Source: Escherichia phage AV121
Sequence record: OR352951.1
Length of the DNA: 64,000 nt
Reading direction: 5' to 3' (one strand)
Both the position numbers and the translations under genes were made by a program. Shown here piece after piece: positions 26,509 to 31,038 of this stretch (its first letter is position 1; every line of letters begins with the position of its first letter). The notes below the pieces were generated by a model that saw only the letters and a program-made list of their open reading frames with translations, was not told where the DNA came from and searched no databases.

Positions 26509-26512
26509 CAAT

Positions 26513-26530
26513 GGGGACCTTTCGGTCCCC
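26513..26530. terminator. bidirectional terminator between gene 54 (+) and the alt-region ORFs (-)
   Basis: GGGGACC-tttc-GGTCCCC followed by ATATTTTTATTT. Confidence 0.75.
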
Positions 26531-26536
26531 ATATTT

Positions 26537-26827
26537 TTATTTACGGAATGAAATGAAAGCAGCAACTGAAGCAACTAAACCGTCTTCAATATAAACTTCA
26601 ATTTTTACAGGAGCTTCTGACTCAAATTTACCTGTTACTACACCCTGAAAAATACTTTCAGTCTGTTCTGGCTTTGAAAAATTTTCAGAAGGAAAAATTC
26701 CAAACTTTTTATCTGTTCCGAAAATTTTGATAAATTCATCATAAACTGCTTCGTTAAAAGCATTATCAGCAGGAATAACGCCTTCAACTACAAGTTCTTG
26801 ACCTAAAAAGCGCAAAGAAGATTTCAT
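26537..26827 (-). CDS. hypothetical protein (downstream of alt)
   Basis: 96-aa ORF, ATG checked; GAGGA RBS lies inside the 54-bp promoter/RBS repeat. Confidence 0.55.
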   Translation of the reverse strand: MKSSLRFLGQELVVEGVIPADNAFNEAVYDEFIKIFGTDKKFGIFPSENFSKPEQTESIFQGVVTGKFESEAPVKIEVYIEDGLVASVAAFISFRK

Positions 26828-26834
26828 TTTGTGT

Positions 26835-26888
26835 TCCTCATGTTATGTCAGTAAGACTACTATAACACAACACGAGGGACTTGTAAAC
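26835..26888 (-). repeat. 54-bp promoter/5'UTR/RBS cassette, copy 1 (upstream of ORF 26537..26827)
   Basis: Identical to 40344..40397; minus strand reads GTTTAC-N18-TATAGT ... GAGGA, i.e. T4 early-promoter-like -35/-10 plus Shine-Dalgarno. Confidence 0.7.
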
Positions 26889-27246
26889 TGCATTTTGAAC
26901 TTTTTAGTACGCGGAATAGGCATGCGTCAATTTTATACTGCTTCATTGTTTGAAGAGCAGTATCAAAAACAGCATTAATGACGCCAATTGGATTTCCACC
27001 CAAGTTTTTAAGCTTAACCAGTGATAATTTCTCGTTGACACCTATCATTACGATATGCATCATTTTATCGCCTGGCTTAACGTTTTTATTTGTATCACCG
27101 CCAGAGGTGTATGTACAAAATCTAAATCCAGGAAGCACGCTTTCTTCGCCGGCTTGGATAGCAAAAATTTGTGGTATTTTATGCTTAGGATTTAAGTTAA
27201 CAACCGGCGCCGAAGCGCCGTCAAATAATTCTGTAATAAGTTCCAT
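26860..27246 (-). CDS. paralog of the Alt N-terminal domain (no ART catalytic region)
   Basis: 128-aa ORF aligning by eye with Alt residues 2 to ~125 (MELITELFD..NLNPK.KIPQIF..PGFR.CTYTSGGDTN..GDKMMHIV..QTM.QYKIDAC). Confidence 0.65.
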   Translation of the reverse strand: MELITELFDGASAPVVNLNPKHKIPQIFAIQAGEESVLPGFRFCTYTSGGDTNKNVKPGDKMMHIVMIGVNEKLSLVKLKNLGGNPIGVINAVFDTALQTMKQYKIDACLFRVLKSSKCSLQVPRVVL

Positions 27247-27249
27247 GAT

Positions 27250-29340
27250 TTATCCTTGAACGAACTTGTAAGGCATGTTTGTAATATCTATGCAAGACGC
27301 AATAATTCCAAGAGATGATTCTACTTTCTGTTTAACATTTGATGAAACAAATGATGCAAAGTCAACTCTATCTTCTATATCACCTGTCATTGCAACTACT
27401 TCGCCGGTTTCCATTAGACGGTCACCGTCATAAATTACCGATTCGGTGAGTTCTTCTGTGGTCATAACTTCAGCTTGAATGAGTTTTGTATTATTAGACG
27501 TGGTTCCGTCATTATTAGAAGCATCAGTTATTTTATTAACTTTGACCATCAATCCGCGCGGTAGAATAACTTCAGCTTCTGTTGCTATTCCGAGACTTCC
27601 TGGATATACAACATTAACTTTATGAGCTCCATCAATTGCCCATCCTATTTGAACTTTAACGTATTCAGGATTTTCTTTATACGCTCTTATTTCGTTTGGA
27701 TTAATAGTTATTCCTTCTTCATTTTTATCAACTGTTAATTCATTACGAGCTTCTGGTTCTAAAAGACCAATACCAGCATGTGTAATTCCAAAACGTCCAA
27801 AAATGATAGGAGTTAAAGAAGTAGATACAAAATTTCTGAAATAGAACACTTTATTTTTAACTAGGGCTTCGTATATAGGAGCAGTCATACTTTGAGCACG
27901 ATAAACTGTAATGCCTTTCGGTATGCGGTCACCATTTTCAAAAGCTGAATCTAAATTATTTATAGCAGATTCAATTTCTTTTTCACTCATTACATCATAT
28001 CGTTCTGGATTGTAACGACCTAAAAGAAGATTATTAATGTCTGTATATCCTGAGCCACAATATTCTCTAATGCCGCGCTTTTGTGATGGAGTATATTTAG
28101 AACCATCACGGGCAATAGTAATATCAATCATTGGACCAGCACCAATTCCAGAAAAACTATAAATCATTCGTTTGAGGAATTTAGTTTTTGCTGCATTCCA
28201 GGCATTTTTAGTTATTTCTCCCCAGACTTCATCTGGTTGTCCTTTACGAGTTTTATTATGTTTATCAAGCCAATTATCTTTATATTCTTCAAAGAATTTA
28301 TTAACAGCTGCTGCGTATTTCTCTAAACATTTTATTGAAGTAGTTGGTTCATTTTTAATTGCGTTAAAAATTACATCTTTAATTTTTTCTGAAACTTCAT
28401 CAACCTCACTTTTTGAAAAGAATTTATAGTCATAGTGAAGTTCATTCGCAGTTCCTTCGGCAATAATTTTTGCTGCCTTAGTTTTAGAAGCTAATGAATT
28501 AATTCCAAGCTTCATTTCTTCTGCTTCGGGAATTAAAGGAGCAGTAGCAGGTTTATTGAAATTAGCTGCGGTAGATTCATACTTCTGGAATAATTCACTT
28601 TCAAATCTAGAAGATTCCAATGACTGACTTTGTGCAATTGCTCTACGGGAAATTTTAACTTTAACGATTACAGCTTGGTCAGAACGTTTATCATTTTCTT
28701 GTGCAATAGACGCTGCAATTGCCTCATTTTTAGTTACTTGAGCTCCGGTATCTTTATTGATATAAACATCACCGACCTTCGATTCAACTTTAGTAAAGAG
28801 CTCGGTACTAATTTTCGGAACTCCTGGAATGTCTTCTAGTGATACATTTTTGCGATGTATAATAATATATGCATACTTTTTATCATAATCCCAGAGTTCC
28901 TTAAGAAGGACGTATCTGCCACCTGAACGACTACGGATAAGTCTATCAGCAATAACTTGAATTTGTCGAGCTTGACCAGCAGTTTTAGACTTAAGAATAC
29001 GGAGCATACAAGCATCAATTTTATACTGACGCATTGTTTGCATTGCAACAGTAAAAACTGAATTGATATAATTAATTGGGCTTGGACCAAGACCTTTTAA
29101 TTTAGCAATTGAACCTTTAGCAGTTAATGTAAAAGGAACAATATGCATCATTTTATCGCCCATCTTTAAATCGCGATTAGTATCACCTCCAGATGTATAT
29201 GTACATAAACGAAAGCCTGGTTGTTCAATTGCATCATCAACATGAACTGAAAAAATTTGCGGTATTTTCTTCTTTGGATTTAAGTTTGTAATCGGAAGAG
29301 TAGTATCTTCGTCAAATAATTCTGTAATGAGTTCCATCAT
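27250..29340 (-). CDS. alt: Alt ADP-ribosyltransferase (virion-packaged)
   Basis: 696-aa ORF; C-terminal half has ART-like R ... STS ... ExE (YRAQS, FVSTSL, ATEAEV); minus-strand TATAAATA 21 nt upstream. Confidence 0.85.
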   Translation of the reverse strand: MMELITELFDEDTTLPITNLNPKKKIPQIFSVHVDDAIEQPGFRLCTYTSGGDTNRDLKMGDKMMHIVPFTLTAKGSIAKLKGLGPSPINYINSVFTVAMQTMRQYKIDACMLRILKSKTAGQARQIQVIADRLIRSRSGGRYVLLKELWDYDKKYAYIIIHRKNVSLEDIPGVPKISTELFTKVESKVGDVYINKDTGAQVTKNEAIAASIAQENDKRSDQAVIVKVKISRRAIAQSQSLESSRFESELFQKYESTAANFNKPATAPLIPEAEEMKLGINSLASKTKAAKIIAEGTANELHYDYKFFSKSEVDEVSEKIKDVIFNAIKNEPTTSIKCLEKYAAAVNKFFEEYKDNWLDKHNKTRKGQPDEVWGEITKNAWNAAKTKFLKRMIYSFSGIGAGPMIDITIARDGSKYTPSQKRGIREYCGSGYTDINNLLLGRYNPERYDVMSEKEIESAINNLDSAFENGDRIPKGITVYRAQSMTAPIYEALVKNKVFYFRNFVSTSLTPIIFGRFGITHAGIGLLEPEARNELTVDKNEEGITINPNEIRAYKENPEYVKVQIGWAIDGAHKVNVVYPGSLGIATEAEVILPRGLMVKVNKITDASNNDGTTSNNTKLIQAEVMTTEELTESVIYDGDRLMETGEVVAMTGDIEDRVDFASFVSSNVKQKVESSLGIIASCIDITNMPYKFVQG

Positions 29341-29360
29341 ATCCTCTCTAGTGTTTATTC

Positions 29361-29368
29361 TATTTATA
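29361..29368 (-). promoter_or_regulatory. late promoter box (minus strand) for alt
   Basis: Plus-strand TATTTATA is TATAAATA on the minus strand, 21 nt upstream of alt ATG. Confidence 0.6.
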
Positions 29369-29373
29369 AAATT

Positions 29374-29391
29374 AAAGGCCCGAAGGCCTTT
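29374..29391 (-). terminator. hairpin overlapping the stop of ORF 29390..29578
   Basis: AAAGGCC-cgaa-GGCCTTT; U-rich on the minus transcript. Confidence 0.55.
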
Positions 29392-29578
29392 AATAATCTA
29401 TTGGTAAGAGAGTACGATATATTTCAAACTTTGGACCTTTTTCATAAGCATCAAAAGTTTCTGTAAATTTATTATAAGCATATGCATCTATAAATTCAAT
29501 CATGATTTGTGATACAGAAGTAGAAACATCTCCGCCTTCTTTTTGAGCCACAACAATTGTTTCTAAGTAAGCTTTCAT
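29390..29578 (-). CDS. hypothetical protein between gene 30 and alt
   Basis: 62-aa ORF, ATG checked; stop overlaps a hairpin terminator. Confidence 0.5.
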   Translation of the reverse strand: MKAYLETIVVAQKEGGDVSTSVSQIMIEFIDAYAYNKFTETFDAYEKGPKFEIYRTLLPIDY

Positions 29579-31038
29579 AAACCAGTTACCTCATGAAAAT
29601 CACCAAATACATCTTCGAATGTATTAGCTTTAGTTTTATCTTCACGTAAACGAATCGCAATCGGAAGAAATAATTTAACGTAATCAGTGCGGCCATCAGA
29701 TTTTAACCAACCATTGCATTCGCACTCTAGAATTTTTCCAATATAATAATTTTGGTTTTCCATAATGCGAGTACGGTCAAGTTCATGTGATTTTACACCG
29801 GCTTTATCTTTTAAGCCTGAACCAGCATTTACTTTAATTTTTCCACACTCTGACTCAAGAATAAATCCACCTGCTTTAGTAGGGTCTTTACGGTGAGGAT
29901 AAATTCCTACAATTTTTAAATCAACATCAATTACTTCTTTAAATTTATAGAGATTTTTTGAACGAGCATTTTCCCACAATCCATCGGTATTTTTGAGAAT
30001 AATACCTTCAAGACCTTGGTCAATATACTTTTTATAAATTACCTTAGCTTCATCTAGGTTATTTACTACCTGGTTTTCAATTAAAATTACTTTATCATAA
30101 CCTGATGTCATTTGTTCTAGTTTAGAAAAACGTACATCATATTTCAAACGAAATGCAGGAAGACCGTATATTTCTACCAACGGGACATAATCCCAGACCT
30201 GAAACTTCATGCATTGAGCTTCTTTTTCAGAAATGGTTCCCTTTAAAGATTTATTGGCGATGCCATTAGATGCAGTACGTGATTCAGCTACTTCGGCGAA
30301 TTCTTTAGCTTTACTAATTTCAGGATAAGCATCAAAAAGAAAATCTAGGCCTTCTGGCTCCTTTTCAACTTGCTCATGGTATACCAATTCGCCATCAATT
30401 AACACACCTTCTGGATGAATCTGGCGAGCTTCTGCAGTCATTTTGATTAACTCTTCCTTAAGAAGATCTAATCCTAGATATTCATTACCAGCTCGTGATA
30501 AAAGACGAACATCATCTAATTCATCACCTCTGACTTCAGCAAAACACCGAGCTCCATCAGCTTTTAACTGGGCAAAGGCTGGAAATTTAATATTCTTATT
30601 AATGCCTTTTTCATCATAAGAACTTGCAAGCATTTGAGGTTGTTCAGGAATTAAACCTGGCCAAACTTTGTTTGCAATAGATACTGAAGCACCACATTCA
30701 AGGTCTCGCATCATCACTCGACGCAAAACTTCAACATCATCTTTTTTACCGTCAGTAATATAACCTACTAATTCCTCAATTGCCGCATTTCCGGTCAATT
30801 TTCGAGTAGCTAATGTAAATTCAATGAAGTCAAGCATATCAGTAATAGTCAGCATTCCAAAACTCTGGGTAGCAATACCAGGTTTAGGCCATTTCTTGAT
30901 ATAATACTGTAACCCACGAGAATAAGTCAGACGATATACTCGTTTAAGCAATTCATTATCTTTATTCTTTTCAAGAATTGCTTGCTTCTGCTTAGTTGAA
31001 CCAATAGATGCTATTTCGTTCAGAATTTTAAGAATCAT
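29575..31038 (-). CDS. 30: ATP-dependent DNA ligase gp30
   Basis: 487-aa ORF, same length as T4 DNA ligase; nucleotidyltransferase lysine context (LKADG). Confidence 0.95.
   Translation of the reverse strand: MILKILNEIASIGSTKQKQAILEKNKDNELLKRVYRLTYSRGLQYYIKKWPKPGIATQSFGMLTITDMLDFIEFTLATRKLTGNAAIEELVGYITDGKKDDVEVLRRVMMRDLECGASVSIANKVWPGLIPEQPQMLASSYDEKGINKNIKFPAFAQLKADGARCFAEVRGDELDDVRLLSRAGNEYLGLDLLKEELIKMTAEARQIHPEGVLIDGELVYHEQVEKEPEGLDFLFDAYPEISKAKEFAEVAESRTASNGIANKSLKGTISEKEAQCMKFQVWDYVPLVEIYGLPAFRLKYDVRFSKLEQMTSGYDKVILIENQVVNNLDEAKVIYKKYIDQGLEGIILKNTDGLWENARSKNLYKFKEVIDVDLKIVGIYPHRKDPTKAGGFILESECGKIKVNAGSGLKDKAGVKSHELDRTRIMENQNYYIGKILECECNGWLKSDGRTDYVKLFLPIAIRLREDKTKANTFEDVFGDFHEVTGL

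Follow-up and report, generated by a model that had tools for sequence, protein, structure and literature searches.

The Alt protein of bacteriophage T4 is a core component present in about 40 copies (PMC9958956), and it is trimmed by gp21 at the sites ITE-6 and LTE-619 (PMC5694885). Between alt and its neighbour alt.-3, on the same strand, T4 carries two short genes called alt.-1 and alt.-2 (NP_049810, NP_049809). The T4 sequence record states that these genes 'reflect an old duplication of the first part of gene alt'. They were also listed among the paralogous duplications of alt by Nolan et al. 2006 (PMC1524935), which is the only report that our literature search on this pair turned up. 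Here we describe the same locus in Escherichia phage AV121 (sequence record OR352951.1), of which a stretch of 64,000 nucleotides (nt), called the window below, was analysed. In the window, the remnant that is split in T4 is present as a single unbroken open reading frame (ORF) of 128 amino acids (aa) (26860..27246, minus strand; ORF map and PHROG matches). It directly follows alt (27250..29340, minus strand), which encodes a full-length packaged ADP-ribosyltransferase (ART) of 696 aa as counted from its first ATG. Comparison with related genomes shows that a second full-length Alt-type gene once lay directly downstream of alt, and that the 128-aa ORF is the 5′ part left of it by a deletion. 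We believe that this remnant of a lost second Alt enzyme is very probably young and non-functional.

A BLASTP alignment of the 128-aa product with Alt residues 2-118 yields 72 identities in 117 positions (62%, E=1e-48), and the similarity extends to the DNA level, where the 5′ ~200 nt of both genes are 72% identical (E=3e-27). Both observations bear out the first-pass annotation of the window, made by a model from the letters alone, which had described two related ORFs at these positions with visible DNA similarity near their 5′ ends; both ORFs are on the minus strand. However, this annotation placed the likeness across the first ~125 residues, whereas it ends at residue 116-117 (LKS) and the final 12 residues, SKCSLQVPRVVL, are unrelated to Alt. 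The PHROG 802 profile, which matches Alt itself with E=1.7e-272, also matches the 128-aa ORF (E=1.5e-51), limited to profile positions 2-120. PHROGs 23015 and 15247, which are families built on the T4 Alt.-1 and Alt.-2 proteins, match residues 1-56 (E=1.7e-41) and residues 62-128 (E=6.5e-49), respectively. The short ORF has no Pfam match and hence no PF03496 catalytic domain, as had been anticipated. Alt does match this domain (E=4.5e-37), and it carries the R / STS / ExE motifs that had been read from its sequence, in the form YRAQ / STS / EAE. Exact-sequence lookup showed that WPK36797.1 of Escherichia phage AV121 has the same sequence as the 128-aa product.

The origin of the ORF becomes apparent when the locus is compared with those of other T4-like phages. 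When 50,697 phage records were searched by megablast, the top matches (RB33, RB32, T2, RB27 and others) spanned 5,006 base pairs (bp) against a 3,301-bp query. RB32 has, in the interval from alt to alt.-3, a gene named alt.-2 (YP_803136; 1989..4046 of sequence L001) for a 685-aa 'Alt-like RNA polymerase ADP-ribosyltransferase', and the same full-length gene is present in T2 (689..2746 of L023) and T6 (640..2697 of L024). This long paralog is homologous to Alt throughout its length (41% identity over 685 aa), matches PF03496, and has intact catalytic motifs (YRGQ-481, STS-507 and EAE-587, all between residues 481 and 589). It shares with the window an orthologous set of the first 116 codons, the ribosome-binding site, the position after alt and the presence of alt.-3 downstream, in RB32, T2, T6, RB33 and about 400 other Tequatrovirus records. 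Unlike the window ORF, it has 685 residues with a complete N-terminal domain, a middle region and an ART domain bearing R/STS/ExE.

Aligned with RB32, the window exhibits one gap with near-identity on either side, and the 9-mer CTAAAAAGT is found at both gap edges. In the 2,058-nt gene this 9-mer occurs at nt 340 and again at nt 2039, or 1,699 bp apart (RB32, T2, T6 and the IMG/VR contig L005), and the window has a single copy, read as 26907..26899, that marks the deletion junction (26899..26907, minus strand). Codons 1-116 of the window ORF (26899..27246, minus strand, as delimited by alignment to RB32 alt.-2) are the retained 5′ part of the long gene. They share 98.3% nt identity with RB32 alt.-2, and the 116 encoded residues are 100% identical to the first 116 of the 685-aa paralogs in sequences L004 and L005. 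Because 1,699 is 3n+1, the reading frame is shifted after the junction. The last 11 nt of the former gene, TCAAAATG[T/C]AG (once ..FKM*), are now out of frame, and the ORF runs on through an out-of-frame tail of 12 codons plus stop (26860..26898, minus strand, by alignment to RB32) that ends at an intergenic TAG.

The loss of these 1,699 bp, through replication slippage or illegitimate recombination between the 9-bp direct repeats, took away codons 117 to ~682. With them went the final third of the N-terminal domain, all of the middle region and the entire catalytic domain, including the R/STS/ExE motifs. The resulting frame shift carries translation 12 codons further, past the old stop and into the promoter of alt.-3. 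Thus, where the first-pass annotation saw a duplicated N-terminal module, we see an entire second Alt gene reduced to its 5′ part by a microhomology deletion. The comparison with T4, T2, T6 and the RB phages that it had recommended upheld the paralogy with Alt, through T4 alt.-1/alt.-2, but not a duplication of a module, because T2, T6 and RB32 have the full-length gene.

The internal 1.6 kb of the long gene is present in 402 records of the phage collection, and 83 records span the deletion junction, which in a three-way alignment is exactly the same in T4, FL23 and the window. The T4 locus resembles that of the window in the junction CTAAAAAGT|TCAAAATG and in its nt sequence (about 95% identity). 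It differs in that one A has been lost from an A-run (AATAAAAAC > AATAAAAC), such that the remnant is split into alt.-1 with 61 aa and alt.-2 with 67 aa. An assembly artefact can be ruled out, given that the junction is identical in 83 independent records. A single clean origin of the deletion could not be confirmed. Specifically, the same two haplotypes of the retained 348 nt occur among deleted and among long alleles, so either this segment has been shuffled by recombination or the deletion has recurred at the repeat.

It is also necessary to consider the reverse order of events, in which the short form is original, having arisen long ago when the first ~350 nt of alt were duplicated in tandem, and the 685-aa form resulted from a later insertion. 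The wording of the T4 record quoted above implies this order, as does a note in the RB32 record that reads 'apparent insertion in alt.-2'. However, the extra 1.7 kb is Alt-homologous throughout, in frame and with its catalytic motifs intact, and therefore the polarity is that of a deletion rather than an insertion. Furthermore, the final 11 nt of the long gene, with its stop, persist out of frame past the junction, the junction falls in a 9-bp repeat that is found twice in long alleles, and the long form is the majority state that is seen also in T2 and T6. Even the degree of similarity is unfavourable, as the ORF is 62% identical to Alt versus 100% identical to the N-terminus of the long paralog. 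We regard the short-form-first proposal as effectively refuted, with almost no chance of being correct. Thus, the 'old duplication' of the T4 annotation and the 'insertion' of the RB32 annotation have the polarity backwards: T4 represents the deleted state, whereas T2, T6 and RB32 represent the ancestral state with two enzymes.

The Alt-derived nature of the remnant is already known, since the T4 annotation, Nolan et al. 2006 and PHROGs 23015/15247 all cover it, and our sole refinements are the polarity of the deletion and the microhomology mechanism. The ORF is likewise not a conserved annotated gene unrelated to Alt, a possibility raised at the outset, as its T4 counterparts are annotated as Alt-derived.

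The first-pass annotation had the ORF stopping where Alt continues into its linker, but both an alignment and a structural model place residue 116 inside a conserved domain of ~165 residues. The 65-70% identity between Alt and the full-length paralog continues to about residue 238, and conservation among Alt, this paralog and the Alts of other genera is free of gaps from residue ~6 to residue ~238. An alignment of three genera is likewise gap-free across residue 116, with invariant residues that include D108, A109, R113, S117, G121, R132 and L133 distributed on both sides. The AlphaFold2 model of Alt residues 1-175 depicts a single compact domain covering residues ~10-165 (mean predicted local distance difference test score, pLDDT, of 81; predicted template modelling score, pTM, of 0.79). 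In this model a strand at 109-115 is followed, beyond the cut, by a helix at 123-138 and by strands at 142-145 and 155-162. Because conservation and model both run through residue 116, the 128-aa ORF is predicted to hold about two thirds of the N-terminal domain and to be without its last third. An earlier model of Alt 1-249 built on a shallow multiple sequence alignment was poor (pLDDT 57), its Foldseek matches were all above E=1e-3, and it was not relied on. The Alt N-terminal region matched nothing in local copies of Pfam and NCBIfam, and no name was found for the precomputed tag PF26846.1. Similarly, we found no solved structure that covers the Alt N-terminus, and the ART domain alone weakly matches CdtA and iota toxin.

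In its first 117 residues the window ORF is 62% identical to T4 Alt, and this part contains the MELITE propeptide that gp21 cleaves at ITE-6 in T4. It differs by having no catalytic domain, no C-terminal propeptide and a partial N-terminal domain. This raises the question of whether the fragment is maintained as a gene among the phages that carry it. Word-indexed protein searches were not suited to a census of allele lengths, as they gave 3 matches for the 128-aa ORF, 5 for Alt 1-249 and 11 for an alignment of six sequences. The census was instead assembled from tblastn, megablast on the phage collection and exact-sequence lookup, with allele classes assigned from the tblastn pattern in the best-ranked 60 of the 83 junction-bearing records.

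Among these 60 records, 43 give two-piece, 383-nt matches of the T4 type, apparently reflecting a -1 frameshift that was verified in T4, L007, L008 and F25 (in the A-run). One carries a further, second frameshift, and the other 16 give single-piece matches. Seven translated single-piece alleles have GAA>TAA at codon 6 (fPS-90, FL12, fPS-2, AV119, EC128, SG1 and 215Ecol030PP), and this stop is apparent in 12 of the 60 records overall. The 128-aa frame is open in four of them (FL23/FL44, N2 and SYGD1), to which the window can be added. In total, the remnant is broken in 56 of the 60 records by tblastn pattern and in at least 11 genomes by direct inspection, and the fPS-2 copy has been called a putative pseudogene by the authors of its record. 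Exact-sequence lookup located intact 128-aa variants on 4+2+2 contigs, the 92-aa form created by the stop on 27+3 contigs, and the T4-type 67-aa form on 178. The ORF of the sister phage AV119 lies at nearly the same record coordinates (26799..27185) as that of AV121, but with the stop at codon 6. Orthologous copies have thus accumulated three further kinds of disabling lesion, namely the -1 frameshift, the stop at E6 and the second frameshift, and the E6 stop is found on both haplotypes of the retained 348 nt.

Variation within the retained codons points in the same direction. We aligned 20 copies of codons 1-116, of which 5 are from long alleles and 15 are from deleted alleles. Variants that are shared with or private to the long alleles comprise 21 synonymous changes and 1 non-synonymous change. 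Variants private to the deleted alleles comprise 10 synonymous and 9 non-synonymous changes, 1 stop and 2 indels (Fisher p=0.0006, or p=0.002 without the stop and indels). None of the 9 replacements in deleted alleles occurs among 12 distinct long proteins. On this comparison, the deleted alleles show relaxed constraint. The copy in the window shows no sign of adaptation to a new role, and is simply a copy that has not yet been hit by further mutation. We therefore favour, as very likely, the interpretation that the product is not selected for and that the ORF is a young pseudogene as it would look before its first disabling point mutation, whereas T4 and most carriers of the deletion would already be past such a mutation.

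Several considerations weigh against this interpretation and should be kept in view. The individual classification covers 60 of the 83 junction-bearing records, and the comparison of site classes involves 5 long and 15 deleted DNA sequences with sites treated as independent. Moreover, the frameshift may have arisen just once and been spread by recombination, and so may the stop, which would amount to ~3 independent hits and not to dozens. Given the mixing of haplotypes, the number of independent events is small and uncertain. It is also true that the T4 proteome reflects the broken form and is silent on the unbroken ORF, and that peptides of 61-67 aa are easily missed. Finally, the frame of the window ORF is unbroken, it is preceded by a good Shine-Dalgarno sequence, and MELITE, the propeptide motif at which gp21 cuts Alt, has been retained. 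Judging from these sequence features, the 128-aa product could be made and even packaged.

Indeed, the signals for its synthesis appear to be in place. The Shine-Dalgarno sequence AAGGA (27253..27257, minus strand) is situated within the final alt codons, 6 nt before the ATG, and the alt stop TAA is 3 nt ahead of this ATG. The AAGGA is unchanged in the long-allele phages, where it serves the full-length paralog. Because the ORF is on the alt late transcript, translation is plausible, and we anticipate that a truncated, non-enzymatic polypeptide is probably still translated in this phage from the ribosome-binding site inherited from the paralog. Two peptides, LFDGASAPVVNLNPK and the junction peptide SSKCSLQVPR, are unique to the 128-aa product. 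In time-resolved T4 data, RNA was detected for alt.-1/alt.-2 and classed as 'middle', while protein is listed as NA; the Alt, Alt.1 and Alt.-3 proteins were detected in that data set (PMC9697503).

The first-pass annotation had suggested that the short protein might be a co-packaged accessory or a regulator of Alt. A more explicit version of this idea would have the truncated protein made late, targeted by its Alt-type N-terminus to the prohead core, trimmed at ITE-6, co-packaged and injected, thereby serving as an accessory or as a competitor that tunes Alt packaging. Besides the open frame with its AAGGA, 3 nt past alt on a late transcript, this proposal draws on the retention of MELITE, the N-terminal gp21 site of T4 Alt. 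A check for gp21-type (L/I)-x-E motifs, as had been recommended, found ITE at residues 4-6 as the sole example in the 128-aa ORF, and it is the same as Alt ITE-6. In addition, the N-terminal 116 residues are the same as in functional long paralogs. However, the remnant is frameshifted or stopped at codon 6 in 56 of the 60 best-ranked carriers, including T4, which grows normally, and the variation private to deleted alleles indicates relaxed constraint. The cut also removes a helix and two strands from a predicted single N-terminal domain, and the tail is nothing other than accidental promoter sequence. Moreover, whether the six-residue Alt propeptide is a capsid-targeting signal was left open by Ali et al. 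2017 (PMC5694885). Together with the failure to detect the T4 products, these observations lead us away from an accessory or regulatory function, which we judge to be quite improbable.

A narrower form of the proposal applies to phages in which the ORF is open (AV121-like, FL23/FL44, N2 and SYGD1). In these, the 128-aa fragment would be produced late, brought into the prohead by the Alt-type N-terminus, trimmed at ITE-6 and injected, acting as a catalytically dead competitor for Alt packaging or binding a partner of Alt in the host. We consider this highly improbable. If true, a packaged open fragment would serve as a natural experiment on where in Alt the information for capsid targeting resides.

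Another alternative is that the DNA has been kept for a role in cis and that the ORF is incidental. The segment might provide spacing, the early promoter of alt.-3, or a context for messenger RNA stability or translational coupling between alt and alt.-3. A consensus scan identified a promoter-like site of the sigma-70 / T4-early type for alt.-3 (TTTACA-17-TATAGT with TG, 10/12 matches; 26859..26887, minus strand) that overlaps the tail of the 128-aa ORF, and a promoter is annotated here in some GenBank records (H33, H48). In T4, alt.-3 produces early RNA and early protein (PMC9697503), and the remaining 348 nt are kept by every deletion carrier examined here. However, the promoter is situated past the junction and long alleles have it as well, and thus it does not explain the retention of codons 1-116. 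Between sequences that have diverged so little (95-98% identity), ~350 nt of neutral DNA can persist without selection. We therefore view a cis role as very unlikely, and we retain the interpretation of the ORF as a decaying remnant.

A truncated tandem Alt paralog has been noted in at least one other setting. RB49p183 of the Krischvirus RB49 (7490..8314 of L025) resembles the window ORF in being located directly downstream of alt, and Nolan et al. 2006 grouped it with T4 alt.-1/alt.-2 (PMC1524935). Unlike the window ORF, RB49p183 keeps the opposite half, with the C-terminal ART domain in a product of 274 aa, and because it belongs to a different genus it represents an independent event. The slot after alt seems prone to the gain and decay of paralogs in several genera.

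Given these findings, the remnant itself is an ordinary feature that carries little weight for new biology, and its paralogy has been documented for two decades, both by the T4 GenBank record and by Nolan et al. 2006. One practical consequence is that names such as 'ADP-ribosyltransferase exoenzyme' on the 128-, 92-, 67- and 61-aa products are misleading because none of them has a catalytic domain. The more interesting object is the full-length paralog that T4 and AV121 have lost. In most T-even relatives, two different Alt-type enzymes are encoded, if not also injected, and the second of these is missing from the model phage T4. We found no paper that characterises the full-length second enzyme, and it seems to be uncharacterised.

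The surrounding locus has the arrangement of a Tequatrovirus (T4-like) segment. In the ORF map, the minus strand reads gene 30, alt.1, alt, the 128-aa ORF and alt.-3, and genes 48 and 54 on the plus strand precede the alt.-3/alt cluster. DNA ligase gene 30 occupies 29575..31038 (minus strand) and is followed by alt.1 (62 aa; 29390..29578, minus strand), whose product matches PF24647 'Phage blade protein' (E=7.5e-29). After alt.1 there is a GC-rich, terminator-like hairpin, AAGGCC-TTCG-GGCCTT (29376..29391, minus strand), that was noticed by eye and was not reported by the consensus scan. Nolan et al. 2006 noted that T4-like phages have a conserved terminator ahead of alt (PMC1524935). Just past this hairpin and 20 nt upstream of the alt start region is the T4-type late promoter box TATAAATA (29361..29368, minus strand), which was read directly and agrees with the late promoter that the first-pass annotation had placed there, consistent with late transcription of the alt locus.

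The alt gene opens with ATGATG, and the distance from GAGG is only 2 nt for the first ATG but 5 nt for the second (29335..29350, minus strand). Because this Shine-Dalgarno spacing fits the second ATG, the true start is probably at 29337, which would yield a protein of 695 aa beginning MELITE..., as in T4. The Alt of the window has ITE at residues 4-6 (counted from 29337) and LTE at residues 631-633 (ORF numbering from 29340), which are the counterparts of ITE-6 and LTE-619, where gp21 processes T4 Alt (PMC5694885).

On the other side of the remnant, alt.-3 (26537..26827, minus strand; 96 aa) is a downstream neighbour that lies outside it, assigned to DUF5498 from a match to PF17602 (E=7e-64) and the T4 annotation. 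T4 mutants with a C-terminal extension of alt.-3 escape the CmdTAC defence system (PMC11618068), and the alt.-3 of the window is of wild-type length. Lastly, a hairpin with a perfect 9-bp stem, ATGGGGACC-nnnn-GGTCCCCAT (26511..26532), scores as a terminator on both strands and is located between the converging genes 54 and alt.-3.

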